Both the position numbers and the translations under genes were made by a program. Under the pieces are notes generated by a model that had not been told where the DNA came from, did not search any database, and saw only the letters and a program-made list of their open reading frames with translations. From Bdellovibrionaceae bacterium UBA1609 (GTDB lineage Bacteria > Bdellovibrionota > Bdellovibrionia > Bdellovibrionales > UBA1609), in NCBI GenBank assembly GCA_002321895.1, contig DCMZ01000017.1, positions 130,220 to 194,219 on the forward strand: DNA of 64,000 bases, in the 5' to 3' direction. Shown piece by piece: positions 2,959 through 61,329 of this stretch. Every line of letters starts with the position of its first letter. Within the stretch, counting starts at the first letter, position 1.

Positions 2959-4584
2959 TTATCTTCTGAACGGGACTACATTTGAGGTCTCTGGAGGGGA
3001 TACCAGGGACCTCTCCACCCAACCGTCAGTGCTTCCAGGATACTCTTTTTTGTCTGTGAGTAGCTTGAGCCCCTGTTGGCGCAATTGAGTGCTTAGACTT
3101 CGGATTTGCCGAAGCCTTGTGGCCATTTCCTTCGATGATACCGCTTCGGAGCTAGTATTTAGAATCTTGTGATTGAAATCGATGATCTTTCGGTATTGTT
3201 CAATATTCTTTTCGTATTTAACTTCCGAAATTTCAAACAAACTTTGACTGACTTGAAGGAAGTCTCGCAAGAGGTCCGCATCCGACCTTTGACTGGCCAT
3301 TAGAGACTGAACTTCTTCAAACAACTCCTTGTTGTTAATGCTTACACGCCCATAAGTGTGCGAACCGTTCATCTCTCCAGAATAGGCAAAAAGAATTTTA
3401 TTCCCAGAAATTTGGAAATGAATTTCCACAACCTCTCCCAACCCATAAAATGCACTGTCTTCGGGTTTAAACTGTATGCTTACAGCACCGTTTTCCTCTT
3501 TGACCAAGGTCATTTGATGAGCACCTTTAGCAAAATTAAAATGGCGCTTTGCCAACTTCTGAATTTGACCTAGGAGATCGCGGTTATCTACTCCGATTTG
3601 CATCTCACGAATTAGAGCCTCCTGCTGTTCCCTCACCTTTGCTTTGGCCCGGTCCATTTCAATTTGCAAACGTGACAATCCCATCTCTTTGTTTACAAAC
3701 TCCAAGTGGCGCAACATGGCCTGACGCTCTAAAAAGAAAGTCAGCGGCTGGCCGGTCCTAAAATAATAATTATCACCATCGCGATGCTTCACTCCAAACA
3801 AATCATAAGCACCTGTAAACTGTGATGGGCTGTAGGCATTGGGAGACCGAAACTCCACCATGGCTGCCGCATTAATAATATCAATACCAGAAAAGGGGGC
3901 TAAAACGTGCTCCGGGCGAACATAAACATAGTCCCTTCGAGCTACAGGCATTTGTGGAGTTTCAGTGGCATAAAACGGAAGAGCCGGATCTAATCGAATC
4001 CCACTATCATAGGCCAAACCTTTGTGAGAGAAAATATCACGGGATAGAACTTTTCCCAGGTGCTGCAAATAATGCTTATAGACCGGCTTAGTGTATTTGT
4101 TCGTGTCCACAATGGACAGCTGCTTCTCTGAAATACTGCCAAACAGCTTCCATGAGTATTCACCACCAGTATTGATCCATCGGGGTTCCAAACCATAGTC
4201 TCTAAAGTACTCAAATATCTGAGAATAAAAGTCAGGCATCTTAAATCTCTTAGGCACCTCTGAATTCCACCCTACACCTTGTGAGAAATCTTGTGGTCGC
4301 TTACGCTCCATTTGATCAACTATGACTCTTAAAGGGCCTTTAAACTCAGAGAGAGGTATCATTTGTTTCAAGGTATCCTGAAACTGCTGAAATGCTTCCT
4401 TTACGGACTTCAGCCTTAAATTCTGCACCTGATGGCTCTTTGCCTGGCTAAATGTTTGAACGGATACAACCGTCGCTTTAGAGTCTGCTTTAAATAAATC
4501 AATACAGGTCTGCTGACCCCAGACAGGAGTAACTCCAGAAATTAGAAGCGTTAAAAAAGCAAAAATTGGTAGTCTCATAGCCAT
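2959..4584 (-). CDS. secreted hypothetical protein
   Basis: 541 aa. N-terminal signal peptide MAMRLPIFAFLTLLISGVTPVWGQQ. No motif recognised. Confidence 0.55.
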   Translation of the reverse strand: MAMRLPIFAFLTLLISGVTPVWGQQTCIDLFKADSKATVVSVQTFSQAKSHQVQNLRLKSVKEAFQQFQDTLKQMIPLSEFKGPLRVIVDQMERKRPQDFSQGVGWNSEVPKRFKMPDFYSQIFEYFRDYGLEPRWINTGGEYSWKLFGSISEKQLSIVDTNKYTKPVYKHYLQHLGKVLSRDIFSHKGLAYDSGIRLDPALPFYATETPQMPVARRDYVYVRPEHVLAPFSGIDIINAAAMVEFRSPNAYSPSQFTGAYDLFGVKHRDGDNYYFRTGQPLTFFLERQAMLRHLEFVNKEMGLSRLQIEMDRAKAKVREQQEALIREMQIGVDNRDLLGQIQKLAKRHFNFAKGAHQMTLVKEENGAVSIQFKPEDSAFYGLGEVVEIHFQISGNKILFAYSGEMNGSHTYGRVSINNKELFEEVQSLMASQRSDADLLRDFLQVSQSLFEISEVKYEKNIEQYRKIIDFNHKILNTSSEAVSSKEMATRLRQIRSLSTQLRQQGLKLLTDKKEYPGSTDGWVERSLVSPPETSNVVPFRR

Positions 4585-4983
4585 CGCTCAATAGGTTGCA
4601 ACAGATATACCTACGGGCCTCTCAATACTCAGATGAAACCTACCCGCTCACCTCCCTAAGAATTGGATATTACAGATAAAATCACCTGAAAATGCTGTTT
4701 GTTTTCTATACGATAGCGCCAATTTATGCCGCCCAAACAACAAAGCCCCGGTCAGGAGCTTGGACTTAATTCTAAAACGTCCCTATCTCACTACTTTGGT
4801 AGTGGCGCCCATTGTCCCAGGCTCTTTCTCTCCCCTATTTTAGACTGGAAGTCGGGAGCATGAGTACCAACTCATACCAGGAACCTCATTGGTGAAGTAA
4901 AATTATGACACAACCAATGAAGGGGTTCACGTCTGTCTTCAGTAACCATTAAAAAAATCGCTCTAGCGCTTCTATTAGGACTG

Positions 4984-6069
4984 TTGAGCTTGGAAGTGGG
5001 ATTACGTGTTCTTCATTCAAAGCTCCCATCAAGTAGAAACTTCTTTATCCCGGACTCAAATTTGGGATGGCGGCTCAAACCAAATTCAAATTTCCGGCCA
5101 GCCGAAAGCTTTTTTTCTTCAAGAGTTACTTATAATTCTGATGGCTTCCGGAGTCGTGAAGTGGGATTGCCAAAGGGTAAGGCAAAGAGAGTTTTAATTC
5201 TTGGAGGCTCTCTTATGGAAGGCAGACATGTCAATGACGACGAGATTGCTAGCTACCTTTTTGAAAATCAGCTTTCCAATTCCTATGAAAATATTGAAGT
5301 TATAAACATGTCTGTGTCAGGCTACAGCACACTTCAAAGCCTTTTATTGTACAAGAACATTGGCAAGCACTTTAAACCCGATATTGTCCTGTTAGGATTT
5401 AGTCTTGAAGGCGATTTATATAAAAACTCGCTGGAACTCACTAATGAGTTTTTAGGTAAACCTTTTGAAGAGGCACACATCCGACCCTATCTAACCAAAA
5501 TCAATAATCAATGGACCCAGCAACGTCCTGACATGGATCAAGTGTCTGCCTATTTACAGGCAGAAGCCCCGAGACATTGGAGTGAAGTGGCCATGCTTCA
5601 AACATTTTCTGACATCATTCAGTATTTCCAGAGAAAACGCTTCATTTCTCGAATGGAATCTAACAAAGAGGCACCCCACTCTAAATGTGGGGATTTACCT
5701 TCTTATGATTTAGCATGGGAGACAACTCAGGAGATCATTCGAAGATTGAAATTAGAAACCCAAGAGACGGGCACAAAACTTATTGTGTTCTCTCCCCCTT
5801 CACCTATAAAAGTATCTGAATCTCTTGTTCACGTTGAGAGTCCCCCTAAATCCATGACCTGTACAGACCGAGAGTCTTTGGCGAAACTTAAAGTAACTAT
5901 TCAAAATACAGGGATTGGATTCATAGATATTTCAGACACATTCATAAACAGTCCTTCTATAAACTTTAAAGCCGGCCCGAGCATTCAGTGGAACCGTGAA
6001 GGCCACCTCCGAGTGGCCGATCGACTGGCGGAAAGTCCAGTGATCCATAACGCATTAAAGGGTATGTAG
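4984..6069 (+). CDS. SGNH/GDSL-type hydrolase (AlgX/AlgJ-like esterase or acyltransferase); true start probably upstream
   Basis: Block I is LILGGSLMEG, block II is NMSVSGYS, and the C-terminal block is WNREGHLRVADRLA. The frame is open from 4921 and encodes KKIALALLLGLL (a signal anchor) upstream of the TTG at 4984. Confidence 0.5.
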   Translation: MSLEVGLRVLHSKLPSSRNFFIPDSNLGWRLKPNSNFRPAESFFSSRVTYNSDGFRSREVGLPKGKAKRVLILGGSLMEGRHVNDDEIASYLFENQLSNSYENIEVINMSVSGYSTLQSLLLYKNIGKHFKPDIVLLGFSLEGDLYKNSLELTNEFLGKPFEEAHIRPYLTKINNQWTQQRPDMDQVSAYLQAEAPRHWSEVAMLQTFSDIIQYFQRKRFISRMESNKEAPHSKCGDLPSYDLAWETTQEIIRRLKLETQETGTKLIVFSPPSPIKVSESLVHVESPPKSMTCTDRESLAKLKVTIQNTGIGFIDISDTFINSPSINFKAGPSIQWNREGHLRVADRLAESPVIHNALKGM

Positions 6070-6118
6070 ACTCACAGATTAAAGTTAGTATTCTAGGTAA
6101 GTTGAAAAACTTTGAGAG

Positions 6119-7069
6119 ATGCCTATGAATTCAAATTCCACAGAAAAACCTCATATCTCGATTGTATCTCCCATTTATGGTGACCCTGTAGACATTGAAG
6201 AGCTGTATCGCCAACTGGTTCAACACCTCTCACCCATTACATCCAATTTTGAAATCATTCTTGTTAACGATAGAAGCCCCGATAACTCGTGGTCAAAAAT
6301 ACAAAAGATCTCCCAATCTGACCCCAGAGTAAGGGGCGTCTTACTTTCTAGGAACTTCGGACAGCACTATGCGATTTCAGCCGGACTAGAATACGTCACA
6401 GGCGATTGGTGCGTAGTGATGGACTGTGACTTACAGGACCGACCTGAAGAGATACCTCGCCTCTATGAATTAGCCACAGACCAAGACTATGACTCTCTAG
6501 TTGCTCGAAGAATTGCACGTCAGGATAGCATTTTAACGCGTTGGACTTCTTGGTTCTTCTATATTGTTTTTAACTATCTTACAGATCAAAAATACGACAA
6601 CCGTGAAGCCAATTTTGGTATCTATAAGCTAAAAGTTATTGATGCTATACGCCAATACACCCAAAAAGATCGCTCATTCGGACTTATGGTTTCATCCGTC
6701 GGCTTCAAAAAGGGATTTCTTGAAGTCAAACATGGCGAAAGATCTACTGGTACTTCTTCTTACACCTTCACCAAGAGACTCGGCCTTGCCATAGATTTAA
6801 TACTCTCTAACTCTATAAAACCCCTACGACTCACTGTTCAATTGGGTTTCGTGATCTCAGCACTCTCTCTCACCTATTCGGCTTATGTGATCTGGATGTA
6901 TTTCAATCATGATCAAATGGTGAGTGGCTGGACAAGTACGATTGTCTCTATGTTTTTTCTTTTTGGCATCTTAATCAGCATCATGGGTATGGTGGGGCTT
7001 TATGTTGGCAAAACTTATAATCAAGTTATGGGACGCCCCCTCTATATCGTCGATAAAACTACGTTTTAA
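6119..7069 (+). CDS. family-2 glycosyltransferase, polyprenyl-phosphate sugar transferase type (GtrB/ArnC/DPM1-like)
   Basis: Motifs ISIVSPIYG...ILVNDRSPDNS...LSRNFGQHYA...VMDCDLQD (DxD). Two C-terminal TM helices. Confidence 0.85.
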   Translation: MPMNSNSTEKPHISIVSPIYGDPVDIEELYRQLVQHLSPITSNFEIILVNDRSPDNSWSKIQKISQSDPRVRGVLLSRNFGQHYAISAGLEYVTGDWCVVMDCDLQDRPEEIPRLYELATDQDYDSLVARRIARQDSILTRWTSWFFYIVFNYLTDQKYDNREANFGIYKLKVIDAIRQYTQKDRSFGLMVSSVGFKKGFLEVKHGERSTGTSSYTFTKRLGLAIDLILSNSIKPLRLTVQLGFVISALSLTYSAYVIWMYFNHDQMVSGWTSTIVSMFFLFGILISIMGMVGLYVGKTYNQVMGRPLYIVDKTTF

Positions 7070-7120
7070 ATGCATCCATTGACTCTAATCGTGAAATCAT
7101 TGAAAATTTAACCATTCCAA

Positions 7121-8308
7121 ATGAAGGAGCTCCTTTTGGGACGAATGAATCTAGTCAATAAGTTGCACCAAAAATCTGTAGTAGAAAAACTTCAGCAGAT
7201 TGACTGGAACTTTGGAACCAAAAGCCCTTATGTGGTAGAGCTGGACCCAACCACGGCATGCGACCTAGCTTGCCCCGGCTGCATTAGTGGAGATCTCCTC
7301 AACCAAAAAGACAGCTTCGATAATAGATTTAGTAATGACCGACTCGTAGAAATTTCAAATGAACTCATCGAATCTGGTGTGAAAGCCGTGATTCTCATTG
7401 GCGGAGGAGAACCTCTCAGTCACCCAAAAGTGGGCGAAGTTATAGAAAACTTTGGCAAGAATGACGTTCAGATTGGAATCACCACTAACGGAACTTTTAT
7501 TAAGAAACACTTGGATCTTATTGCCAAATACGCCAGCTGGACTCGGGTTTCAATGGATGCCGGTACGGACGAAACCTTTAAATATTTGAGACCGACTCGA
7601 TCAGGTCGATCAAAATTTAACCCTATTGTAGAAAACATGCGAGAGCTTGCAAAAGTTAAAACAGGTATATTGGGTTATTCCTTTCTCATTAGAACGGCTG
7701 CCGATGGGGATGCCGAGTCTGTTGCAGGCCTTTCCGAGTATGGAAAAATTCAGCTTTCCAATGTGAATGAAATCTTTGAAGCCGCTAAATTAGCTAAAGA
7801 GATTGGGTGTGATTACTTTGAGCCTAAGCCCAGCTATGATGATGATCATAATTTAGTGACCCATAGCGAATATGATATGACTGTGGCTAAAGAGATGATT
7901 CGAAGAGCGCGAGAACTGGAAGCCGATAACTTTAAAGTTTTAGAGTCTATCAATCTTCAAGCCGCTCTGAATAGAGAGCAAATTGGCGATCAACCTAAAG
8001 ACTATACTTCTTGTCCTGCTGCTGACTTGAGGACACTCGTTACTCCTAGTGGTGTGTATGTGTGCCCCTACTTTAGAGGTAATGAAAACTTTAAGATTGG
8101 AGATATGAGAAACCAATCTCTTGAGGAGATGTGGTCCTCTGATCATAGAAAAAACATCATGGACAAACTCGACCCTAGTTGTGACTGTGACAAACTTCAC
8201 TGCATTCGACATGATACAAATTTAGAAGTTTTTGAGATCATGCGAAAAATCGAAGCGGACAAAGAGATTGAAATCCATAAAGTTGATGCAGAAGACCGTT
8301 TTATTTAA
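7121..8308 (+). CDS. radical SAM enzyme
   Basis: CxxxCxxC cluster motif TTACDLACPGC, a GGGEPL glycine-rich SAM motif, and a C-terminal Cys-rich region (CPYFRG...CDCDKLHC). Confidence 0.85.
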   Translation: MKELLLGRMNLVNKLHQKSVVEKLQQIDWNFGTKSPYVVELDPTTACDLACPGCISGDLLNQKDSFDNRFSNDRLVEISNELIESGVKAVILIGGGEPLSHPKVGEVIENFGKNDVQIGITTNGTFIKKHLDLIAKYASWTRVSMDAGTDETFKYLRPTRSGRSKFNPIVENMRELAKVKTGILGYSFLIRTAADGDAESVAGLSEYGKIQLSNVNEIFEAAKLAKEIGCDYFEPKPSYDDDHNLVTHSEYDMTVAKEMIRRARELEADNFKVLESINLQAALNREQIGDQPKDYTSCPAADLRTLVTPSGVYVCPYFRGNENFKIGDMRNQSLEEMWSSDHRKNIMDKLDPSCDCDKLHCIRHDTNLEVFEIMRKIEADKEIEIHKVDAEDRFI

Positions 8309-8334
8309 CCCTTCAACAGGCGGCTAAAACGATT

Positions 8335-9846
8335 ATGGAGCTCAACAGGCAAGCCATCCACGATAAATTGAACAATCTTAATATTGAACACCGCTGTTTT
8401 GTGAGCGGCTCATTTTATGATGGGAAAGAATTAGATCTATTCAATAAAATAAGTCCTATCGATGGAAGAGAGCTGCCTGGGATCGGCATTGCGGATAGAG
8501 AACTTGTCAACCGAGCCGTAAGCGCTGCCCGAGAGAGCTATAGAAATGGAAAATGGGCGCGCACGAAGCTCTCTGAACGCAAGCAAGTCCTACTGAAATT
8601 GGCTGAAAAAATGAGCGAGAGTCGATGGGAATTAGCCCTTCTCGACACCATTGAAACGGGACGAAGTGTAAAAAATTACTACTGTGACTCCATCCCCAAG
8701 GCCATTGAAGTGGTTCGTTGGTTTGCTGAGGCTTCGGATAAGTATCTTGATTTTGCACTTCCTCCGCAGTCCTCTCATAGTGGCACAATAACAAGAGAGC
8801 CTTTAGGCGTCGTGGCCGGAATCACCCCTTGGAACGATCCACTTGTACCTGCAATGTGGAAGCTCGCCCCAGCTTTACTCATGGGTAACTCCGTGATTAT
8901 GAAGCCTGCGGAAGAGTCCTCCTACTCTTTATTAAAAATCGCAGAACTTCTCTCGAAATGTGGCCTTCCGAAGGGAACATTAAGTGTCCTCACTGGAACT
9001 GGAGAGATCACAGGAAAACTTTTGGCGCTACATCCGGAAGTGGATGGAGTGTTCTTTACTGGCTCCAGTGAGGTGGGTAAACTCATACTTCAATACTCGG
9101 GGCAGAGTAACATGAAAAAAGTGGGCCTCGAGTGCGGAGGCAAGTCTCCTTTTATAATTTCCAAAAATTGCTCTAATGTGAAAGCTGCTGCAGAAACCCT
9201 GGCTCAAAATATGTTTTATAATCAAGGCCAAATCTGTTCCGCTCCCTCTCTCGCATTTGTCCATGAAAGCCTTAGAGAAGAATTTAAGGTCCATTTAAAG
9301 ACTATTTTACCCCAGTTTCAACCTGGCGACCCGTTGAATCCTGAATCTAATATTGGTGGAGTGGTCAGCGAACAGCAACGAAACCGCATTCTGACTTATG
9401 TAGAGACTGGCAAGAAAGACCAGGTTGAATTTTATGAACCAGAACCCAAGACACTTGCCTATCCCGATCAGCAATGCGTGAATCCTATTTGTTTTTTCGA
9501 CGCTCCAGAGAGTCACGACCTTTTCAAAGAAGAAGTGTTCGGTCCCGTACTGGTTGTAAATAGCTTTTCTAATTTAGCGGAAGCCGTAAATTCGGCAAAC
9601 AATACAAACTTTGGCTTAGCCGCAAGTATTTGGACCAACGATTTAAACGAATCCTATCACGTGAGCAGAGAGCTGAGAGCAGGTATTGTACATATAAACA
9701 GCTATGGGCAAGATGACATGTCAGCTCCTTTCGGAGGCATTAAGCAATCTGGTCTCGGCAAAGATAAATCATTGTTTGCCTTTGATGAATACACTCACCT
9801 GAAAACCATTTGGACGGAATATCCATCCTCCAAAAGTGTTCTATGA
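8335..9846 (+). CDS. NAD(P)-dependent aldehyde dehydrogenase
   Basis: ALDH motifs FTGSSEVGK, LECGGKSP (catalytic Glu), GQICSAPS (catalytic Cys) and EEVFGPVL. Confidence 0.9.
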   Translation: MELNRQAIHDKLNNLNIEHRCFVSGSFYDGKELDLFNKISPIDGRELPGIGIADRELVNRAVSAARESYRNGKWARTKLSERKQVLLKLAEKMSESRWELALLDTIETGRSVKNYYCDSIPKAIEVVRWFAEASDKYLDFALPPQSSHSGTITREPLGVVAGITPWNDPLVPAMWKLAPALLMGNSVIMKPAEESSYSLLKIAELLSKCGLPKGTLSVLTGTGEITGKLLALHPEVDGVFFTGSSEVGKLILQYSGQSNMKKVGLECGGKSPFIISKNCSNVKAAAETLAQNMFYNQGQICSAPSLAFVHESLREEFKVHLKTILPQFQPGDPLNPESNIGGVVSEQQRNRILTYVETGKKDQVEFYEPEPKTLAYPDQQCVNPICFFDAPESHDLFKEEVFGPVLVVNSFSNLAEAVNSANNTNFGLAASIWTNDLNESYHVSRELRAGIVHINSYGQDDMSAPFGGIKQSGLGKDKSLFAFDEYTHLKTIWTEYPSSKSVL

Positions 9847-10997
9847 AAAAGAAGCTGTTACTCCTTAATGGTTCTCACTCGGAACTCACGCTCATTCAAA
9901 AAGCGATGGAATTGGGGCTAGAGGTAATTACCACCGGCAACGCACCTGATCTCATTGGCCATAAGTTGGCTGATAGGTACATCGCAGCCGATTACACCGA
10001 CAGATCTGCCATTTTAAAAATTGCAAAACAGGAGTCGATCGACTTTATATGCTCCTGCGCCAATGACGGTGGAGCGATCACCGCTTCCTATGTAGCTCAT
10101 GAGTTGGGCCTCCCAGGACATGATGATCCTGAAGTTTGCGAACTCATTCATTTAAAAGATAAATTTAAAAAGTGGGCCTTGGATCAAGGCCTCCCTACAT
10201 CGCCCCTCTTTTCCCCCGAAGAGTCAGCCAACCACCTCCCAGTCATTGTAAAACCAACGGATCTCACTGGTGGAAAGGGTATTAGTGTGGTTCGATCGTC
10301 CTCGGAGCTCAAGTACGCCATTGAACTGGCTAAGAAGGCGTCCCCTTCTAATAGCTATATCGTAGAGAAATTTGTTGAAGGCACTCTCCATTCTTTTTCC
10401 ACCATCGTAAGCCGTCAAACAGTTGTGGCTACACATAGTGATAATGAATTTAGCACCATCAATCCGTTTACGGTTTCAGCTTCCTACAGCCCAGCCCCAC
10501 ATTTAAAGCCAATCAAGAGCTCACTGGTGGAACTGACGGAGTCCATTGCCAAAAATCTTAAGCTGGAGGATGGCATTGTTCATTACCAGTATCTATGGGA
10601 TGGGAAACAATATTGGATTATAGAGATCACACGTCGATGCTCGGGAGACCTCTATCCGGCACCCGCATCTTTGGCTATACAACGTTCTTGGGAGGAAGCC
10701 ATTCTACTCGCCTGCATGGGCCAGCCATTAGACTTCTTATCAGGTGCCGAACAAGAAGGAAATTTTGGTCGAGTGTGTTTTATGGCTCATAAAAATGGTG
10801 AGATTAAAGACTTTAAAATCCATCCTCTTTTAGAGAAAAATGTTGTCGAAACCGTATTTGCCCGCCCCGTAGGCTATTCAATTTCTAATTTCAAAATAGA
10901 AAAATTAGGCGTAGCTATTCTAAAGTTTAGGGATAAACAGGAAGCTGAAGAGAAAGCCAAGTTTATAGACGAATGGACTCAAGTCGTTGTAGACTAG
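9843..10997 (+). CDS. ATP-grasp ligase
   Basis: I prefer the start at ATG 9843 (MKKKLLLLNG), which gives an ATGA overlap with the ALDH stop. It has a pre-ATP-grasp Rossmann-like N-terminus, then KDKFKKWA...VIVKPTDLTGGKGISVV. Confidence 0.7.
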   Translation: MKKKLLLLNGSHSELTLIQKAMELGLEVITTGNAPDLIGHKLADRYIAADYTDRSAILKIAKQESIDFICSCANDGGAITASYVAHELGLPGHDDPEVCELIHLKDKFKKWALDQGLPTSPLFSPEESANHLPVIVKPTDLTGGKGISVVRSSSELKYAIELAKKASPSNSYIVEKFVEGTLHSFSTIVSRQTVVATHSDNEFSTINPFTVSASYSPAPHLKPIKSSLVELTESIAKNLKLEDGIVHYQYLWDGKQYWIIEITRRCSGDLYPAPASLAIQRSWEEAILLACMGQPLDFLSGAEQEGNFGRVCFMAHKNGEIKDFKIHPLLEKNVVETVFARPVGYSISNFKIEKLGVAILKFRDKQEAEEKAKFIDEWTQVVVD

Positions 10998-11003
10998 CAC
11001 CCT

Positions 11004-11855
11004 ATGATGCGTTTACATCCGTGCTACAAAAAACTCGAACTCACTGATTTTGGCTATTGGATTCCCGAGCAGGCTAGCGAAGGTGAAGTGCACTACCCAG
11101 ATGAAGGCCATCAAACCGATATCGATTTTGAGTCCAAATCTTTTTGGTACAAACACAGAAATGACTGTATTGTCGCCGCTGCAAAAAATCACCCTCCCCG
11201 TGATGATGCCCCCGCTTTTGATTTAGGTGGAGGCAGCGGCTATGTCACCAAGGCCATTAATGATGCTGGTATACCAATGACACTCATAGAACCCAATCCA
11301 TTGGGGGCCAGCAAAGGGGTTCGCCGTGGACTACAGAATGTCATATGTTCTCGACTAGAAGATTGCCAAATTTCCAATGACTCTGTGGGAGGGTTTGGCC
11401 TGTATGATGTGGTAGAACACATCGAAGACGACAAAGCTTATATAGACATGCTCCATAAAAAGCTGATTGAAGGCGGCACCATTCACCTTACCGTTCCAGC
11501 CTATCAATGGCTTTGGTCCGCAGAAGATCAAACTGCCTTACATTTTCGCAGATACTCCCTAGAACAAGCGAAACAGCTATTTGATACCACTCAGTTTTCG
11601 ATAGATTATGCCTCCTACTTTTTTCAATGGTTGGTTCCTCCCATATACTTCATTCGATCTCTCCCCCATAAACTGGGTTTACAATCTAAAGAAAATGGCT
11701 ATAAATCAAATATGGATCATCACGAGTCCGGCGAAATGATGGTTAACAACATCATTGGCCACTTTAACTCAAGAGAAGTTAAAACCATTCAAAAAAATAA
11801 AACATTGAGTTTTGGTGCCAGCTGCATGGTGATCGCCAGAAAGACGGACCCATAG
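11004..11855 (+). CDS. class I SAM-dependent methyltransferase
   Basis: Motif I FDLGGGSGYV, then LYDVVEHIEDD and GGTIHLTVP (Methyltransf_11/23-like). Confidence 0.75.
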   Translation: MMRLHPCYKKLELTDFGYWIPEQASEGEVHYPDEGHQTDIDFESKSFWYKHRNDCIVAAAKNHPPRDDAPAFDLGGGSGYVTKAINDAGIPMTLIEPNPLGASKGVRRGLQNVICSRLEDCQISNDSVGGFGLYDVVEHIEDDKAYIDMLHKKLIEGGTIHLTVPAYQWLWSAEDQTALHFRRYSLEQAKQLFDTTQFSIDYASYFFQWLVPPIYFIRSLPHKLGLQSKENGYKSNMDHHESGEMMVNNIIGHFNSREVKTIQKNKTLSFGASCMVIARKTDP

Positions 11856-11874: not shown

Positions 11875-12534
11875 TTATTTTGATTTTAATTTGGCTTGAA
11901 GTAGCATCACTCCCACCAAAGATAATATGTAAATGGGCAAAATATGCCAAACTAACTTGATGGCACCAGTGACCATAGGACAGTAAAACTGCAGCGCAAA
12001 AGAACCCATAGAAGTGGCCGCTAATATGCTAAAAAACAAAGCCATAGGTTTATTCATCACATAACCCTTGGTGACCATTCGATGAATAGATATCCCCACC
12101 GGAATGGCCGACAGAGTACTGACTGTCAAACAGGTGTATCCCAAAAACATGGTTTCCACAGCAAACTCAGGCAAAAGGAAACTATCCAACACTGTCATTC
12201 CCAAAACACTCCAAAGCAGAAGAGTCCCAAAACTCAACAACCTAGATAATGTCGGGTCAATGCCTGGTCTTGAGATCATCAAAGCCGTTAATCCTGCGGC
12301 TAAAGAAGATGACAGCAGCAGGGCCTGTTCAATAATAAACTTTGCATCCAAAACTCTCTCAACAGAAAAATCAAAGCCGGCGAAAATCAAACTCAACAAA
12401 CCAGCGACAGCCAAAGACGCCACTACAGATGGGACAAACCAACGCAAAATGGTGGGCCCAATGGGAGATAACACCTTCACAGGCTTCAACTGCGAAGATA
12501 AATCACTTATTAAATCAGCACGAGATTTTCCCAT
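11875..12534 (-). CDS. NrsF/DUF1109-type membrane anti-sigma factor
   Basis: 219 aa with six TM segments. The N-terminus is ADLISDLSSQLKPVK. It lies immediately downstream of, and abuts, the ECF sigma gene, as in the sigF-nrsF arrangement. Confidence 0.55.
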   Translation of the reverse strand: MGKSRADLISDLSSQLKPVKVLSPIGPTILRWFVPSVVASLAVAGLLSLIFAGFDFSVERVLDAKFIIEQALLLSSSLAAGLTALMISRPGIDPTLSRLLSFGTLLLWSVLGMTVLDSFLLPEFAVETMFLGYTCLTVSTLSAIPVGISIHRMVTKGYVMNKPMALFFSILAATSMGSFALQFYCPMVTGAIKLVWHILPIYILSLVGVMLLQAKLKSK

Positions 12535-13076
12535 TAAACTTCCAGCTCCTTAAAAATCACTTTGTACCCTCTATGGGCGGCCACCTTGACGGCCGAGACG
12601 GTCATATTCATCTCCGTGGCCGTCTCCTTTAAAGACTTACCGTCAAATTTAAGCAAAGTTACAATTTTTCTTTGATCTTCGGAAAGCTTGGACATGGCTC
12701 GATCCAAAGCCTGCAGGTCCAGAGCGCGGATTTCCGCATCCGCGGCCTGCTCTGGGATAGAGTCTGCATCTACCTGAATTTCCACACTTTTTTTAATTTT
12801 CCTGAGGTGATCGTTAAGCCGATTTCGCGCAATGGCATAGACCCAAGGTTCCACCGGATATTCCGAATTGTACGTGTGCAAAGCTTTATGAATATTAAGT
12901 AAGACATCCTGGACTAAGTCTTCGACCAAATCACTGGCTTTGAGACGCTTATACATAAACCTCTCAACCAATTGCCCCACCCGCTCAAGCATCTGCATAT
13001 AGGCCTGGCTATCTCCCGCCTGGGCTTTCACTATGAGCTGGGTCAGCTCACTTCGACTTGTATCTTTATCGCTCAA
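12534..13076 (-). CDS. ECF (group IV) sigma-70 family sigma factor
   Basis: Region 2 is DLVQDVLLNIHKAL...PWVYAIARNRLNDHLRK. Region 4 is QRKIVTLLKFDGKSLKETATEMNMTVSAVKVAAHRG. The track ORF extends to 13277. I prefer TTG 13076 (AGGAA 9-10 nt upstream), because the longer starts (13190, 13277) overlap the GNAT gene. Confidence 0.75.
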   Translation of the reverse strand: MSDKDTSRSELTQLIVKAQAGDSQAYMQMLERVGQLVERFMYKRLKASDLVEDLVQDVLLNIHKALHTYNSEYPVEPWVYAIARNRLNDHLRKIKKSVEIQVDADSIPEQAADAEIRALDLQALDRAMSKLSEDQRKIVTLLKFDGKSLKETATEMNMTVSAVKVAAHRGYKVIFKELEV

Positions 13077-13602
13077 AGCTTTGATTTCCTGAAAATGATT
13101 GATTCCAAAAATGGTACTGTAGCACCAATTCAAACCGTTCGCTATGAAGTGGTAAAGACATAAAACAATTTGGACCAAATTCAACCTCATGGTTGATCCA
13201 GTTTGAAGTTTGTTCAAATCCGAGGCGTTGGTAGAAACCCATGGTTTCTTGACGAGCAAGAGTCCACACAAAATCACGCCCCATCACTTCCCCTAATTTA
13301 ATGATTCTAGCCGTTAACTTATTAGCAATACCAAGTCCCCTATAATAGGGATCTACATAAACCCCTCTTAATCGAAATCCATTATCATGAGTGGCGAATC
13401 CACTGATCACACCAACGATACGCTGGCTTCGATCATCCACGGCTTTGAAGAAAAAGGGGTCAGCCAAAAGAAGCTTTTTATCGTATCCACCACCAAATCG
13501 AATAGGATTTGTCGGTTCAATGCCCGATTTACGGCCTTTCCAAAGATGGTTTGCCCAAATCGGGTAGACTTCGTCAAAATTTGTCGAACTAATGCGTACC
13601 AT
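13066..13602 (-). CDS. GNAT-family N-acetyltransferase
   Basis: Acetyl-CoA motif LRGVYVDPYYRGLGIANKL. 178 aa. Confidence 0.7.
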   Translation of the reverse strand: MVRISSTNFDEVYPIWANHLWKGRKSGIEPTNPIRFGGGYDKKLLLADPFFFKAVDDRSQRIVGVISGFATHDNGFRLRGVYVDPYYRGLGIANKLTARIIKLGEVMGRDFVWTLARQETMGFYQRLGFEQTSNWINHEVEFGPNCFMSLPLHSERFELVLQYHFWNQSFSGNQSFER

Positions 13603-15109: not shown

Positions 15110-18100
15110 CTATTTAAACTTCTTAAAGAAAGAACTGTGCAGTTGATAGAACTTCTTGTAGTTCTCTTCGGTTCTTAATAACTCCAAAGCCTCGCGCATA
15201 AACCGATCTTCTCTCTCAAGCATAGAAAGTCGTGCAGACTCCTCCAGCTCTGGAATAATTTGACTACGAGCTTTTGCTAAATCACTAATAAGTACAGATT
15301 CCATGGCAACTAAACGAGGAACGATCTCTTCATTCATCTTAAGCTTCTCATTAACAAAAGTGTTCACCTCAAGAATCCAATCCCCCTGATACACTTCATC
15401 CGTCACTTGATCAATGTAGCCCGTCGTATAGAGAACATTATCAGCATAGGTGGATTTAAACTCGGCAGTCATTTCAGGCCTAAACTTTCTAGCCTCTTCT
15501 CTCTCTGCAATCTTCTTCTTTGTATACTTCTCTTGAGCTGTCTCACCTGAGATGAGAGCTGCGAGTCCTCTATCCACCAAGTCAAACTTGACGGTAATAA
15601 AAATTAGAAATATCGCTAATCCTGTTCCTAAAATTATGGACGAAATTCGAATCAAATGCTTTTTATTCTCAACCACGCCTTGAACTGTAGTCTCCGCTAT
15701 CGATCGAATCTGTTCGGAGGTCTCTACGTCATCCGGTGTAATCACTTGGCGCAGAAAGCGATCCGTCCTCTGCAGGGCTCCTTCGCCAGCGTTTAAGCTC
15801 TCAAGCTCCTGCTCAACTAACGGCTTTAATGTGTCCAAAATTTGTCTTCTAACTACTTTAAATCTCTTTTCTTCCTCACGCCGAACCTTGTTCAGCTCAG
15901 ATTCTAACTCCGAAACCTTGTTCACGCGAATTTTGGTCAACTCTAGCTCAAGCTCTTGCTTTGCCTCTTTACGCTCTTGCTCGAGGATCCCCTCTAAACT
16001 GGATTCTTTTTTGACCATCTCTTGCTCTCGAGCCTCTAACTCTCCTGTCAGTCTCTCGGCAGCTTCTTCCAGCTCTTCCCTTCTAGCTATCAGCTCCTGT
16101 ATCTTAGAACTCTCATTTTCCGATTCTTTATTCAGTCTCTGTAAATCTAGCTGATGTCTTTCTACATCCACTCGATACTGCTGCTCTTCGTTTTTAGTTT
16201 CTTCTAGCACTATTTTGTTTTGATCAAGTGCCTCTTGTAGGCTCTTATATTCCTTTTCTAAATCCAGTTTTTTAATTTCTATTTTCTTTTGTTCTGCCAA
16301 CAATTCGCTTTTTTTAACATTATGCTGGGCATCCAGAGCTTTCATTTTGTCTGCGACTTCAGTTTTATATGCCTTTAACGAACTCGCCGACTCATCCTTT
16401 TCACGCTCAAAAGCCAATCTTTGAGAATCCAATTTGTGGATTTCGGACCGTAACCCTTGAACCGTCGCTTCTGATTGTTCTGTTGCCTTTCCTAGCTTTT
16501 CTAAATTTTTAAACCCATCATCTAACTCCAGTTCGAGCTGACTTTTCTCTTTTTTGAATTGCTGAATTTCAGCTTCTAAAGATTGATAGCGCTCCCTAGC
16601 ATCTTTAAACTCTCTATCTAGATGATCCTGTTTTGCTTGAAATTCTCTTTCAAGCATTTCTTCTTTACTCTCTTTATGTTTATCCAACTGCTGAATATCA
16701 ATTTCAACTTGATGCATTTGGTTTTTTAAACCATTCAACTCTGCTTCTAGTTTTGTGCGATAGCTAGTGACTTCTGTCTTTACGTATTCGCTTTGGTTTC
16801 TCACTTTTTCTTCAATTTCTAAATTGATATGTTCTAACTCATTATTCAGAGCGAATTTCTTTTTCTCGATTTCTTCTTCGAAATCCTCTAGATGTTTCTG
16901 CAGAAGAACTCTTTCAGATTCCAATTCTTCTTTTTCTGCTTCAAAGCTCTTTTCTATTTCTTTTCTCGAACTAGCGACTAAACTATTAAATGATTCAAAA
17001 TCGAGCTCTGTCTGGCTACGCTTCCCCTGCAGATCCGACTTAAACATCTCGAAATCATTCTCTAGATCTATTTTTTCTGATTTAATATTTTCAATTTCAT
17101 CCAAAAGAGAAGATTTCTCTCCCTGCAACTCTTCGAGCTTGTGGTTGAGTTTTGCCATTTCGGTATTGATCGCGCTCACCTTATCATCATGTTGCTCAAT
17201 GATCTGCTCTTTAAGTTCTAATTCATTACCCTTTTCTTCGATCTCTCTATGTAATTCCTCTAGCTGATGGGTTGCTGAAGCACGATTATCTTCTAATTCT
17301 TTAATATCGCCTTTAACTTTCTCTTCTGACGATTTAAGTATATTTAGTTCATTAATTTTATTGTTGTATTCCTGATTGGCTTCACCGATTTCCTTCTTTT
17401 TTCCTTCAACAGTTCTTAAAATCCCTTTTAGATTCTCTTCCTGCTCTAGAATTCCACTCTTACGAATAGCTAGCTCATCCTCTAATTCATCTAACTTTTC
17501 AGTTAGACCCTTCATTCGGATAACAAGTTGAGATCTTTGCTTTTCCTGATCCCTATCATATTGGGCCAATTCATTCTTCTTGGTTACAACCAGCTGATTA
17601 AATTCATCGAACTGATGTTTTGCCTTCTCATGATCTAAATCTAACTGTTTATGTTGCTCTAAGATCTTCTCGTTAGCTCCAACGTAATATTGGAAAGTAT
17701 CTATCTGTTGGTTGAGCTCTTTTGTCTGCGAGGCTATTTCACTAGTGATTTCTTGAAGCGCTGCCTTATTTTCAGTGAGAACTTTAGTTTGGATAGTAAT
17801 ATCACCTTGAAGAACGGAAAGCTTTTCTCTGGCTTTATCAGCCTCCTCTAAGGCTTCCTTTTCATCACCAAGATGCTTTTTTCTCCTTTCATCAAGCTCT
17901 CTGATAGCTTCATGAGTTTCATTCCTAAAGGTTTCTAACTGACTGTCCAAACTCTCTTTTTCAGCCTGGGCAGACTCCCTGTCCGTCTCCAACTGAAGTT
18001 TGGTATTCTCAATGTTATTTTGCAAATCAACAATTGTTGATTTGTGTGACTTAATTTCCTCTAAGACTTTATTTTTATCTTCGATGACCTTTTTCTTCTC

Positions 18101-18925
18101 TTCATAGAGAACTTGAATCTTCTCTTTTTCGTTCTCCTGGTCCTTTTGAAGATGATCAATGTCATTTTCTAACTCTTTAGATTTATTCTGGTAAGCAATA
18201 ACAGCCGCTTCTAACTGTTCTAACTTAGAATTATTTTCCTTTAGTTTTTTCTCTAGGCCTTCACGAGCACGACTCAGATTATCCACCTGAATCTGAACAT
18301 TCTTTTTCTTGGTTTCCAAGCCCTTCAGTAATGCCTCAGCTCTTCGAATATCATGAAAAGCTTCCTTCTCTTCCTGTGACGCCAGACTATTAAAATTTTG
18401 CTCTTTCTTTACAGATCCTGGTGGATCCACCAAGGATGCATCTTCAAACGAAAGCCCATCATCATCCCGAGGCTCGATATAGCTTTCTTCCGTGTCATCA
18501 GAAACAGGCTCAACCAACTGAAGTTCCGCCTGATCCCCTCCCTCTTTCAAATTTGATTCTAAGCCATTCTCTGATGTGGACTGTGGACCGCCAATAGATA
18601 CTTTAAAATAATAAAGTTGAGGTCCACCAAAACCAATCTTATCTTCAGGCATAACTTCTTGCGGCTGCGAGGGCTCTATGCGCTTGCCATTCAGATAGGT
18701 TCCATTTGATGAATTCAAGTCCGTAACGTAGATCCGTCCGGAGATTTGCTCGATTTTAAAATGCTTTCGACTGAGCTCAGAGTGATTGAAAACTGCATTA
18801 GCACTAGACCCACGTCCAACCACGAAGGTGGACTCGTGCACTAAGCGCACTTCATCACTGGTGGGCATACAGTAAGTTATTTCAATAGGCAATGCACCTA
18901 GATCCCTGGTGGCAGCCTCGCTCAT
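15110..18925 (-). CDS. FHA-domain protein with ~800-aa coiled coil, one C-proximal TM helix and ~190-aa extracytoplasmic tail
   Basis: N-terminal FHA signature VVGRGSSANAVFNHSELSRKHFKIE...YVTDLNSSNGTYLNGKRI. Heptad-rich E/K/L/Q sequence runs from aa ~185 to ~1010. TM helix is LIRISSIILGTGLAIFLIFITV. Confidence 0.85.
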   Translation of the reverse strand: MSEAATRDLGALPIEITYCMPTSDEVRLVHESTFVVGRGSSANAVFNHSELSRKHFKIEQISGRIYVTDLNSSNGTYLNGKRIEPSQPQEVMPEDKIGFGGPQLYYFKVSIGGPQSTSENGLESNLKEGGDQAELQLVEPVSDDTEESYIEPRDDDGLSFEDASLVDPPGSVKKEQNFNSLASQEEKEAFHDIRRAEALLKGLETKKKNVQIQVDNLSRAREGLEKKLKENNSKLEQLEAAVIAYQNKSKELENDIDHLQKDQENEKEKIQVLYEEKKKVIEDKNKVLEEIKSHKSTIVDLQNNIENTKLQLETDRESAQAEKESLDSQLETFRNETHEAIRELDERRKKHLGDEKEALEEADKAREKLSVLQGDITIQTKVLTENKAALQEITSEIASQTKELNQQIDTFQYYVGANEKILEQHKQLDLDHEKAKHQFDEFNQLVVTKKNELAQYDRDQEKQRSQLVIRMKGLTEKLDELEDELAIRKSGILEQEENLKGILRTVEGKKKEIGEANQEYNNKINELNILKSSEEKVKGDIKELEDNRASATHQLEELHREIEEKGNELELKEQIIEQHDDKVSAINTEMAKLNHKLEELQGEKSSLLDEIENIKSEKIDLENDFEMFKSDLQGKRSQTELDFESFNSLVASSRKEIEKSFEAEKEELESERVLLQKHLEDFEEEIEKKKFALNNELEHINLEIEEKVRNQSEYVKTEVTSYRTKLEAELNGLKNQMHQVEIDIQQLDKHKESKEEMLEREFQAKQDHLDREFKDARERYQSLEAEIQQFKKEKSQLELELDDGFKNLEKLGKATEQSEATVQGLRSEIHKLDSQRLAFEREKDESASSLKAYKTEVADKMKALDAQHNVKKSELLAEQKKIEIKKLDLEKEYKSLQEALDQNKIVLEETKNEEQQYRVDVERHQLDLQRLNKESENESSKIQELIARREELEEAAERLTGELEAREQEMVKKESSLEGILEQERKEAKQELELELTKIRVNKVSELESELNKVRREEEKRFKVVRRQILDTLKPLVEQELESLNAGEGALQRTDRFLRQVITPDDVETSEQIRSIAETTVQGVVENKKHLIRISSIILGTGLAIFLIFITVKFDLVDRGLAALISGETAQEKYTKKKIAEREEARKFRPEMTAEFKSTYADNVLYTTGYIDQVTDEVYQGDWILEVNTFVNEKLKMNEEIVPRLVAMESVLISDLAKARSQIIPELEESARLSMLEREDRFMREALELLRTEENYKKFYQLHSSFFKKFK

Positions 18926-58056: not shown

Positions 58057-58830
58057 TTAAATCGGAACGTAGTTTTCCTTAACCCATGAATGAGTTCGCT
58101 CAGCCAAATCACCACAATCAAATTGTGGCTCTGGTTGAATCTGCCCCACTCCCGAAATCTGCACACTCACTCGTCCTAAAGAACAAAACCGCCAGAGATG
58201 CGGCAGAAAGCTCATATCTCCATACCAGAACAAAGAGTCACGATTCCTTTTTGTTACCGGCTCATCATTGACAGATAAATAATTTATACACAACGCCTGA
58301 GTGGGTCTCCCACTCAGCAATGAAGCGTTATATAGAGGCCTCCTAAATCTAAGGACGGATTCCCCATTTGTAGAAGTGGCCTCAGGAAAAATAGTTACAT
58401 TTATATTTCTACTCAGAGCTTCGGTGATCTCTTGAATCTCTTGCCCTAGAAACTCTCGGCTTCGCCGCTCCACAAACAAACAACCACCCATACGACACAT
58501 CTGCCCCAAAAAGGGAGTTTTTTCTACCTCTCGGGAAGTCACAAAGGCGGTCGGCCACTGTCCTGCCAAAACGAGAATATCAATGTAGGAAAGATGATTG
58601 CACACTATTAGCTGAGAATTTGTTTCTGTCAGGGTTTCTCCGGACCAAGACACTTCCACATTCATAACAGCTAGCCCTAGCCGACTATAGAAAGAAATAA
58701 GATGAGTTCTCACTTCTCTCAACTTCCAAGTGTCCCAAACCAATAACCCTACAACAAAGGAGGTTAATAAGTACGCCAATATAAGAACAAAAACGGTGGT
58801 TATCTTAACCAAGGTCAAAATAAAGTTCAC
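58057..58830 (-). CDS. lysophospholipid/lyso-ornithine-lipid O-acyltransferase (PlsC/OlsA-like)
   Basis: N-terminal TM. HX4D motif NHLSYID and FPEATSTNG. Confidence 0.7.
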   Translation of the reverse strand: MNFILTLVKITTVFVLILAYLLTSFVVGLLVWDTWKLREVRTHLISFYSRLGLAVMNVEVSWSGETLTETNSQLIVCNHLSYIDILVLAGQWPTAFVTSREVEKTPFLGQMCRMGGCLFVERRSREFLGQEIQEITEALSRNINVTIFPEATSTNGESVLRFRRPLYNASLLSGRPTQALCINYLSVNDEPVTKRNRDSLFWYGDMSFLPHLWRFCSLGRVSVQISGVGQIQPEPQFDCGDLAERTHSWVKENYVPI

Positions 58831-61320: not shown

Positions 61321-61329
61321 AAAAAGCCT

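Follow-up and report, generated by a model that had tools for sequence, protein, structure and literature searches.

A conserved radical SAM, aldehyde dehydrogenase and ATP-grasp cassette in a Bdellovibrio-like bacterium, with a possible role in N-acyl-aminosugar surface glycosylation

The DNA analysed here, referred to as the window, is a stretch of 64,000 nucleotides of contig DCMZ01000017.1 from Bdellovibrionaceae bacterium UBA1609, a marine Bdellovibrio-like bacterium. Our subject is a run of six co-directional open reading frames (ORFs) on its + strand, spanning positions 4921-11855, which encode in order a putative SGNH/AlgX-like protein, a family 2 glycosyltransferase (GT2), a radical S-adenosylmethionine (SAM) enzyme, an aldehyde dehydrogenase (ALDH), an ATP-grasp ligase and a SAM-dependent methyltransferase. 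These ORFs are separated by 49, 51, 26, -4 and 6 bases, the negative value being an ATGA at 9843-9846 in which the stop codon of ALDH overlaps the start codon of the ATP-grasp gene. A preliminary description of this DNA had proposed a six-gene operon on one strand with translational coupling of ALDH and ATP-grasp, and both the ORF calls and the ATGA read in the sequence agree with it; of the gaps it gave (50, 52, 27, -4 and 7), the overlap is right and the positive values, being differences of coordinates, are each 1 too high.

The GT2 gene (6119-7069) encodes an enzyme of the GtrB/ArnC/PgfS type. Its product scores 99.8 bits against the Pfam model PF00535 (cutoff 23.3), and the DXD motif is seen as VMDCDLQD. 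Residues 6-312 align with the GtrB structure 5ekp (4e-51) and residues 12-314 with three structures of ArnC; the alignments extend through the C-terminal membrane helices, and a hydrophobic transmembrane segment lies at residues 268-296. The protein therefore combines a GT-A domain with the full-length architecture and membrane helices of polyprenyl-phosphate GT2 enzymes, and it is predicted to load a modified sugar onto undecaprenyl phosphate. Its matches to the NCBIfam equivalog models for ArnC (NF007986, 167.5 bits against a cutoff of 529) and PgfS (NF047588, 194.5 against 500) are full-length and fall short of the cutoffs.

The radical SAM gene (7121-8308) is the signature gene of the cassette. 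Its product belongs to the radical SAM superfamily (PF04055, 64.9 bits against a cutoff of 29.5) and carries a twitch/SPASM-like domain (PF13186, 25.4 against 21.5). The CX3CX2C cluster motif is formed by C47, C51 and C54, and together with C230, C298, C315, C356 and C361 these residues make up eight cysteines that are invariant in 82 sequences. The pattern C298-X12-G311-X3-C315, with C356 and C361 likewise invariant, is the twitch/SPASM signature for one auxiliary cluster, and the placement of the four C-terminal cysteines within or close to the region matching SPASM (residues 307-356) is as would be expected for the auxiliary [4Fe-4S] cluster of redox-active twitch enzymes. Since there are five extra conserved cysteines and no CX2CX5CX3C block, rather than the full seven-cysteine SPASM motif, we regard the domain as twitch-like.

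Fifty-four NCBIfam models match this protein, none of them near its own cutoff (for example BlsE 32.6 bits against 400, MoaA 41.4 against 284, viperin 35.4 against 180 and HpnH 42.3 against 225). In a Foldseek comparison, the AlphaFold2 (AF2) model of the enzyme, with a mean predicted local distance difference test (pLDDT) value of 92, is nearest to SuiB, DesII (8hzv), anSME, BlsE, PqqE, viperin and MoaA, with best template modelling (TM) scores of 0.55-0.61. Fold likeness at this level (0.55-0.6) is generic, and therefore the fold alone does not assign a reaction. SuiB being the best fold match, we considered a role as a peptide maturase and rejected it, as no precursor-peptide-like ORF or recognition domain for ribosomally made peptides with post-translational modifications (RiPPs) is co-conserved with the gene, whereas sugar genes are. 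The only match in a plasmid collection is an unannotated Streptomyces megaplasmid.

The next gene (8335-9846) encodes an NAD(P)-dependent ALDH of the PuuC/KauB-like subgroup (PF00171, 447.8 bits). The catalytic cysteine (QGQICSA), the general-base glutamate (LECGGKSP) and the oxyanion asparagine (PWN) are all visible, as is expected of the superfamily, and the best matches in the PDB are KauB (6b4r), AldA (5iuu) and PuuC (4lih). The NCBIfam equivalog cutoffs are missed both for PuuC (455.5 bits against 850) and for betaine aldehyde dehydrogenase (BADH; 377 against 669).

The gene overlapping it (9843-10997) encodes an ATP-grasp carboxylate-amine ligase, recognised by several Pfam models above their cutoffs (CPSase_L_D2, 33.1 against 19.8; ATP-grasp_4, 32 against 27; ATP-grasp_3, 29.1 against 23.2; also Dala_Dala_lig_C), with a GARS_A match below cutoff. 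Its AF2 model (pLDDT 95) is nearest, at TM scores of 0.78-0.82, to 4dim, to L-amino-acid ligases (3vot at 0.82, RizA and BacD) and to PurT (0.81), so that the predicted fold appears closest to that of ligases joining a small acid to an amine. PylC is among its best NCBIfam matches, and the TupA-like Pfam model gave no match at E<=0.01. The last gene (11004-11855) encodes a class I SAM-dependent methyltransferase (Methyltransf_23, 29.6 bits against 27; Methyltransf_11, 22.9 against 21.2) with motif I as FDLGGGSG and a PDB match to 2avn (2.7e-5). No NCBIfam model attains its cutoff on the radical SAM enzyme, the ATP-grasp ligase or the methyltransferase.

In order to determine whether this arrangement is conserved, we scanned genomes by similarity to the radical SAM enzyme, which yielded 80 loci from many phyla, and partner genes within 8 kb of the radical SAM gene were counted in 82 loci using tblastn and ORF clustering. 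A carboxylate-activating ligase is present in 63 of the 82, as an ATP-grasp enzyme in 41 and as an AMP-binding ligase in 22, and no locus has both. The other recurrent partners are ALDH (56 loci), a DegT aminotransferase (43) and GT2 (33). The invariant pair is the radical SAM enzyme and a carboxylate-activating ligase, with ALDH frequent and not universal. Of the 37 loci holding all three genes, 28 have radical SAM, ALDH and ATP-grasp strictly in a row, in that order and on the same strand, in genomes from Oligoflexia, Planctomycetota, Gammaproteobacteria, Desulfobacterota, Bacillota, Aquificota and other groups. Orthologues of the ALDH (47-65% identity) lie directly 3' of the radical SAM gene in most loci. 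Orthologues of the GT2 (48-74% identity) are contiguous with it in at least 12 loci, GT2 being directly 5' of the radical SAM gene in 12, and about a dozen loci have GT2 orthologues at 48-55% identity, in most cases immediately 5' of the radical SAM gene.

The closest relative, locus L088, has GT2, radical SAM, ALDH and ATP-grasp genes at 74, 79, 65 and 52% identity, flanked by housekeeping genes, with a different methyltransferase upstream and no SGNH gene. Homologues of the methyltransferase in the window, at 25-31% identity, lie beside the cassette in six distant loci (L007, L018, L025, L031, L049 and L050), and the closest relatives have a different methyltransferase close by. In the next relative, L082 (71% identity in the radical SAM enzyme), the order is DegT, RmlA, GT2, radical SAM, ALDH, ATP-grasp, and genes for a Wzy_C protein and a Bac_transf initiating transferase belong to the same cluster, as do transketolase-like genes. 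From order, identity and partner recurrence across relatives, we conclude that the conserved unit, as judged by sequence comparison, is the four-gene core of GT2, radical SAM, ALDH and ATP-grasp, with a methyltransferase as a recurrent accessory. Thus the six genes that had been described as one unit are co-conserved elsewhere as regards the core and the accessory methyltransferase, and not as regards the SGNH gene, which is absent from L088 and from all 80 loci.

The possibility that the six genes are adjacent by chance, or separately transcribed, and form no functional unit has in its favor that the closest relatives have kept neither the SGNH gene nor this methyltransferase. Promoter and terminator scans are uninformative either way: in the divergent region that precedes the operon the scan listed no consensus promoter-like site, shuffled sequence had promoter-like sites at least as often, and no + strand terminator-like site was found in the intergenic gaps of the operon. 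The gaps of at most 51 nt, the ATGA overlap and the synteny kept across phyla all speak for a functional unit, and because the order of radical SAM, ALDH and ATP-grasp recurs on one strand in most loci that have all three, we consider chance adjacency extremely improbable.

Several loci carry additional genes. The cluster of L082 (2736-4471) has a split transketolase-like pair, a TylF-type methyltransferase and two DegT genes; these extras hint that the same glycan contains a sugar that is branched-chain or modified further. A second radical SAM/SPASM gene, which falls in the same BLAST cluster as the signature gene, lies a few genes downstream in L012/L085 (8429-9457) and in L021, and 9 loci have a B12-binding radical SAM gene along with the cassette. 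These genes suggest that the same product undergoes additional radical C-methylation or modification.

The first gene of the operon (4921-6069) encodes a putative membrane-anchored SGNH/AlgX-like protein and has an unusual start. The frame is open from 4921, where the codon following an in-frame TGA lies, and this codon is not a start codon. The frame has no ATG, and its sole canonical start, a TTG at 4984, would drop a hydrophobic, signal-anchor-like N-terminus, IKKIALALLLGLL, which begins at an ATT at 4948. A run of seven A residues follows at 4950-4956. An ATG at 4917 opens a frame of 11 codons that runs into the seven A residues and stops at 4950, and the long frame resumes in +1. A homopolymer length error, a start at ATT 4948 and slippage are all possibilities, and the same start-region sequence is found in an independent NCBI contig (L001).

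The SGNH identity of this protein is plausible and weak, given that the match to the Lipase_GDSL_2 model (PF13472), at 18 bits, is below the cutoff of 32.9 and that homologues are few and remote. Among 5.8 billion proteins there are 8, one of which is the protein of the window itself; the other seven share 30-37% identity with it across about 40% of its length, and PF13472 is found in all of them, with PF16822 (ALGX) in addition in two. The window protein shows GGS (block I-like) and REGH motifs, and it has no PDB sequence match better than E = 0.17. The gene is a near-orphan, a lineage-specific accessory outside the conserved core. Accordingly, five of the six family assignments made previously (GT2, radical SAM, ALDH, ATP-grasp and methyltransferase) are firm, and the AlgX/J-like SGNH assignment is weak.

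The partner genes found in relatives are informative as to the sugar involved. A DegT gene lies within 8 kb in 31 of the 40 ligase loci having full flanks, and three DegT members compared with the WecE models are WecE equivalogs (521-637 bits against a cutoff of 375), that is, dTDP-4-amino-4,6-dideoxy-galactose/glucose transaminases. Relatives also encode RmlA above cutoff, a WecF-like GT56 and CDP-glucose 4,6-dehydratase. Small membrane proteins resembling halves of small multidrug resistance (SMR) transporters adjoin the ATP-grasp gene in relatives, with ArnE/ArnF as their best match, below cutoff, and GtrA, LPG_synthase_TM-like and PMT-like proteins of the glycosyltransferase C (GT-C) fold are encoded in several related loci. 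The cassette adjoins NeuB/CMP-nonulosonate genes in Pelagibacter loci and flagellar genes in a Halanaerobacter locus. The missing nucleotide diphosphate (NDP)-sugar genes are peculiar to the lineage of the window, most relatives having WecE-type aminotransferases, RmlA, 4,6-dehydratases, SMR/GtrA flippases and GT-C enzymes.

The two types of ligase differ in their company. A hexapeptide N-acyltransferase of the NeuD/PglB/VioB type is present in 14 of the 22 AMP-ligase loci and in 0 of the 41 ATP-grasp loci (Fisher p = 9e-9), and the radical SAM phylogeny splits by ligase type. Mutual exclusivity is what would be expected if an ATP-grasp enzyme alone, or a CoA ligase together with an acyl-CoA N-acyltransferase, performed the same N-acylation. 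The simplest reading is that both routes would N-acylate an amino sugar, one directly via an acyl phosphate and the other via acyl-CoA and a transferase. Among the AMP-ligase variants, those of the culturable Neisseriales Aquitalea, Pseudogulbenkiania and relatives (L061, L062, L067 and L070) have the order ALDH, radical SAM, hexapeptide acyltransferase, methyltransferase, DegT, with the AMP-ligase within 8 kb. They continue into a multi-domain glycosyltransferase of 1626-1651 amino acids (GT1+GT2+GT4), typical of polymerising O-antigen synthases, and these strains are genetically tractable hosts.

It had been suggested that the operon decorates an existing glycan or lipid. The sugar genes beside the cassette in relatives point instead to a 4-amino-4,6-dideoxyhexose that is N-acylated before its transfer to undecaprenyl phosphate, and not to decoration of a finished glycan. 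The accompanying proposal, that ALDH makes an acid which the ATP-grasp enzyme ligates as an amide, here taken to be on a glycan unit linked to a lipid carrier, is the reading best supported by the comparative context. We therefore propose, with a probability of roughly 45%, that the operon is an N-acyl-aminosugar decoration cassette feeding lipid-carrier-dependent (Arn/Gtr-like) surface glycosylation.

From the observed gene families, their coupling, their conserved order and the partner genes in relatives, we infer the chemical steps, the acid and the acceptor as follows. The twitch-type radical SAM enzyme would convert a hydroxylated precursor to an aldehyde, by chemistry like that of a diol dehydratase or of the dehydrogenases BtrN and anSME, and ALDH would oxidise the aldehyde to a carboxylic acid. 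The ATP-grasp enzyme would activate this acid as an acyl phosphate and form an amide on the 4-amino group of a dTDP-4-amino-4,6-dideoxyhexose (Fuc4N/Qui4N type), a sugar that would be made elsewhere in the genome. The methyltransferase may place a methyl group on the acyl chain or on the sugar, and the GtrB/ArnC-like GT2 would transfer the finished sugar to undecaprenyl phosphate. Flipping and periplasmic attachment by a GT-C enzyme would follow, both encoded outside the window.

Alternatively, the radical SAM enzyme and ALDH could oxidise the sugar's own terminal CH2OH or vicinal diol to a carboxylate, which the ATP-grasp enzyme would amidate, giving a methylated uronamide-type residue on undecaprenyl phosphate. 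An ATP-grasp enzyme forming an amide on a sugar C6 carboxylate has a precedent in Cj1438C of the C. jejuni HS:2 capsule (PMC11800379). It would also fit this alternative that the window has a GT2 but no aminosugar genes, and that paralogues of the radical SAM enzyme are fused to proteins of the heptose pathway, whose sugars have terminal diols. However, the ATP-grasp enzyme of the window has no TupA-like match and resembles L-amino-acid ligases and PurT, and the ALDH subgroup is known for small amino- and guanidino-aldehydes. Moreover, the products of WecE are 6-deoxy sugars and cannot bear a C6 acid, and uronamide formation gives no rationale for an N-acyltransferase that is strictly tied to the AMP-ligase variant. 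We therefore regard this route as unlikely.

The glycan context of the relatives bears as well on the idea that a soluble small molecule, for example a modified amino acid or a pseudopeptide as in PylB/PylC/PylD, is the product of the radical SAM enzyme, ALDH, ATP-grasp and methyltransferase, with the GT2 as an unrelated neighbor. The PylC match of the ATP-grasp enzyme and the housekeeping genes that flank both the window and L088 islands could be read in this way. The GT2 orthologues contiguous with the radical SAM gene, the glycan genes around the cassette in most relatives and the lack of any co-conserved transporter or regulator typical of metabolite clusters argue against it, and we consider a soluble product quite improbable.

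The wider radical SAM family provides further evidence on the reaction. More than 1100 relatives are detectable, and about 99 clusters at 50% identity score E<=1e-30. Distant members occur as fusion proteins (P0341/L092, 5427-7559; P0265/L091, 8001-10361; P0358 and P0362/L094, 2631-4820; and P0390), with ADP-heptose 6-epimerase HldD (5e-60 to 1eq2), an APH-fold kinase (3csv, 6e-48), Gfo/Idh/MocA oxidoreductases or a transketolase-like domain as the fusion partners. The APH-kinase fusion in L091 (43% identity) is followed by an iron-containing alcohol dehydrogenase (Fe-ADH) and a cytidylyltransferase, with a TagF-like transferase close by, and the HldD fusion in L092 (33% identity) is followed by an aldo-keto reductase within a heptose cluster. 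A Streptomyces clade has a GHMP kinase and a short-chain dehydrogenase/reductase (SDR) nearby and no ligase, its context resting on a few Pfam matches, since ORF calls in these high-GC loci are unreliable.

The radical SAM gene thus has partners that handle carbonyls, namely ALDH in 56 of the 82 loci, Fe-ADH in L091, aldo-keto reductase in L092 and SDR in Streptomyces. The presence of a carbonyl-accepting neighbor in every context supports a carbonyl-forming radical SAM reaction, and in the cassette of the window the product would be an aldehyde, given the ALDH beside it. The analogy of AprD4 or of BtrN/anSME would make this diol dehydratase or alcohol dehydrogenase chemistry. We tentatively suggest that the family carries out a radical reaction new to glycan biosynthesis, in which a diol or an alcohol, borne by a sugar or a small metabolite, is converted anaerobically to an aldehyde. 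ALDH and an ATP-grasp or AMP-ligase would then oxidise and amide-link this product; in other clades, reduction, phosphorylation and nucleotide activation would follow instead.

Several observations weigh against the N-acyl-aminosugar reading. ALDH is absent from 4 ATP-grasp loci and 8 AMP-ligase loci, and therefore oxidation of an aldehyde to the acid is not always required. Neither the window nor the surroundings of the cassette in the 79% identical relative L088 contain an aminotransferase, NDP-sugar gene, flippase or GT-C gene, and therefore the acceptor in this lineage can be deduced only by orthology. The paralogue fusions to HldD, Gfo/Idh/MocA proteins and a kinase suggest that the family acts on sugars themselves. 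In addition, the loci were picked by radical SAM similarity and are not phylogenetically independent, the DegT cluster derives from single-linkage BLAST clustering in which three members were compared with WecE models, and the chemistry of all family members is deduced from sequence.

Some of these points favor a radical SAM enzyme acting on the ring of a nucleotide sugar, by deoxygenation (like DesII, BlsE or AprD4) or epimerisation (like NeoN), before or after WecE, with ALDH and ATP-grasp separately making the N-acyl group from an ordinary cellular aldehyde. The nearest folds and sequence matches include BlsE and DesII, the latter an enzyme that acts on TDP-4-amino-4,6-dideoxyglucose. The family fusions to the epimerase, oxidoreductase and kinase, the Streptomyces clade with its GHMP kinase and SDR and no ligase, and the dispensability of ALDH in 12 ligase loci are all consistent with a ring-acting enzyme, and the invariant C230 could be a hydrogen-atom donor, a role that a cysteine has in radical SAM epimerases. 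On the other hand, the radical SAM and ALDH genes are immediate neighbors in nearly all ATP-grasp loci, and the fold likeness is generic (TM about 0.55-0.6). The cassette also lies beside diverse sugar pathways (dTDP/WecE, CDP-glucose dehydratase and NeuB/CMP-nonulosonate), which is better explained by an acyl module independent of the sugar. A ring-acting enzyme therefore seems doubtful to us, and we retain the N-acyl-aminosugar cassette as the preferred interpretation.

No description of the cassette was found in the full-text literature on radical SAM enzymes with ALDH, ATP-grasp, surface-glycan and aminosugar biosynthesis; two candidate papers (PMC8305402 and PMC12983305) proved to be unrelated. 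In the literature and in NCBIfam, no orthologous cluster was found to be assigned to a known O-antigen or capsule modification, and the operon had indeed not been recognised as a described pathway when it was first noted. What would be new is the radical SAM reaction and the acyl group that results from it. Surface glycans govern envelope charge, visibility to the immune system and recognition by phages and predators, and unusual N-acyl groups are seldom tied to genes.

The cassette is compact (4-5 genes), with its order kept across at least 8 phyla, and its carriers are ecologically dominant or host-associated: Pelagibacter/SAR11, gut Lachnospiraceae, chemosynthetic symbionts, symbionts of bivalves and ciliates, Scalindua and Bdellovibrio-like predators. 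Existing annotation everywhere reads only 'radical SAM protein', 'aldehyde dehydrogenase' and 'ATP-grasp'. Assignment of the function would name a new radical SAM reaction, explain a hitherto unassigned glycan substituent and provide its genetic marker for metagenomes, and if the enzyme is indeed aldehyde-forming, a new and widely distributed class of surface-glycan substituents would be at hand. The two interchangeable ligation routes and the alternative fates of the radical SAM product (ALDH, Fe-ADH and aldo-keto reductase) make the pathway directly testable in vitro.

The operon is preceded by a divergent intergenic region of 336 nt (4585-4920, not assigned to a strand), which is presumed to hold its promoter. 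No recognisable riboswitch or leader was found in this region: nothing in Rfam matches it at E<=1, and its folding energy is like that of shuffled sequences (z = -0.49). A signal of horizontal transfer was likewise dismissed, the GC content of the operon (0.42-0.44) being the same as that of the window. Pfam scans of non-overlapping ORFs of about 150 amino acids and longer show the rest of the window to consist of housekeeping and unknown genes, with no NDP-sugar synthase, DegT or other aminotransferase, Wzx/Wzy or GT-C gene among them, and representatives of the partner genes from related loci had no tblastn match in the window. The absence of a flippase, polymerase or NDP-sugar synthase from the window, remarked upon earlier, is thus borne out.

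Two genes on the - strand are divergent from the operon. One (2959-4584) encodes a secreted soluble protein of 541 amino acids (u541) and the other (1663-2856) a polytopic membrane protein of 397 amino acids (u397), neither with a family match; the His boxes HNAKQH, HNIQYH and GHHF of u397 recall membrane di-iron hydroxylases or desaturases. Both were considered as the missing GT-C enzyme or flippase and rejected, u541 being soluble and secreted and u397 having no family match, and neither recurs beside the cassette elsewhere. On the other side, a convergent pair on the - strand (11875-13277) encodes an NrsF-like anti-sigma factor and an extracytoplasmic function (ECF) sigma factor, with 19 nt between its stop and the last stop of the operon.

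Further away, also on the - strand, the gene at 15110-18925 encodes a protein of 1271 amino acids with an N-terminal FHA domain and no further recognisable domain, in a region of low GC (0.37-0.39) and strong skew. Adjoining genes at 58057-59657 (-) encode a PlsC-type acyltransferase and an Acetyltransf_5 (OlsB-like) protein, resembling the OlsA/OlsB pair of ornithine-lipid synthesis. At 60526-63258 (-), 50 kb from the operon, a soluble GT2 of 264 amino acids is followed by a protein of 642 amino acids without a Pfam match at the threshold used. The latter has an N-terminal MCGI resembling Ntn glutamine amidotransferases, Cys-rich CxxC pairs and an SGGRDS PP-loop, and has been likened by us to sugar amidotransferases of lipopolysaccharide clusters.

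Among known systems, the proposed pathway shares its logic with the Arn (L-Ara4N) pathway, in which an aminotransferase makes a 4-amino sugar nucleotide that is N-acylated, loaded by an ArnC-type GT2, flipped by SMR-like proteins and attached by a GT-C enzyme. The GT2 of the window matches ArnC over its full length, and the SMR halves in relatives have ArnE/ArnF as best match. The differences are substantial, however: the aminotransferase of relatives is of the WecE type (dTDP-6-deoxyhexose) and not ArnB, there is no ArnA or ArnD, and N-acylation would proceed via ATP-grasp and an acid made by the radical SAM enzyme and ALDH, while Arn uses formyl-tetrahydrofolate. The window itself holds only an ArnC-like component, which misses the ArnC equivalog cutoff; ArnA, ArnB, ArnD, ArnE/F and ArnT were not found in it. 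In the three-component systems GtrA/GtrB/Gtr and CsbB/GtcA/YfhO the parallels are the GT2, a full-length GtrB homologue, and the GtrA-family and PMT-like GT-C proteins of related loci. Those systems move plain glucose or GlcNAc, whereas the GT2 of the cassette is tied to radical SAM, ALDH and ligase genes, implying a heavily modified donor sugar.

The Fuc4NAc branch of enterobacterial common antigen (ECA), comprising RmlA/RmlB, WecE, WecD and WecF, is resembled by relatives with WecE and RmlA above cutoff and a WecF-like GT56 beside the radical SAM gene. In place of the acetyl-CoA N-acetyltransferase WecD of ECA there would be either the radical SAM enzyme, with or without ALDH, together with ATP-grasp, or a hexapeptide acyltransferase paired with an AMP-ligase; the ECA genes are not in the window. 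The pyrrolysine-type set PylB/PylC/PylD likewise combines a radical SAM enzyme, an ATP-grasp amide ligase and a dehydrogenase, PylC being among the top NCBIfam matches of the ATP-grasp enzyme, but PylB belongs to another radical SAM clade, the dehydrogenase PylD is no ALDH and the set works without glycan genes.

Radical SAM enzymes paired with a carbonyl processor are known from AprD4/AprD3, a diol dehydratase and its reductase, and from DesI/DesII, in which DesII works with an aminotransferase of the DegT family; BtrN is a dehydrogenase. These systems share with the cassette a radical SAM enzyme, predicted to be carbonyl-forming in the cassette, with a processing partner and the cysteines of a twitch-type auxiliary cluster. 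There is no significant sequence relation of AprD4, BtrN or DesII to the enzyme beyond the radical SAM core, and the ALDH partner implies an aldehyde and not a ring ketone. In blasticidin S biosynthesis, BlsH is the aminotransferase responsible for C4' amination, BlsI an ATP-grasp enzyme that acylates the resulting amine and BlsL a methyltransferase. The same enzyme set (radical SAM, aminotransferase, ATP-grasp and methyltransferase) is therefore seen there, and BlsE, a radical SAM enzyme acting on a sugar nucleoside (PMC3715490), is among the best sequence and fold matches. The likeness is limited to the radical SAM core, however, and blasticidin S is a soluble antibiotic made with neither an ALDH nor a lipid-carrier GT2.

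Finally, Cj1438C shares with the cassette the formation of an amide bond by an ATP-grasp enzyme in a surface polysaccharide pathway; this TupA-like enzyme activates the C6 carboxylate of the sugar itself (PMC11800379), whereas the enzyme of the window has an L-amino-acid-ligase/PurT-like fold. Since the equivalog cutoffs of ArnC, PgfS, BlsE, PuuC and others are missed and the defining partners of Arn are absent, the cassette is a member of none of these systems. It would work like a hybrid of the lipid-carrier logic of Arn and Gtr, the Fuc4NAc branch of ECA and the enzyme set of blasticidin S.

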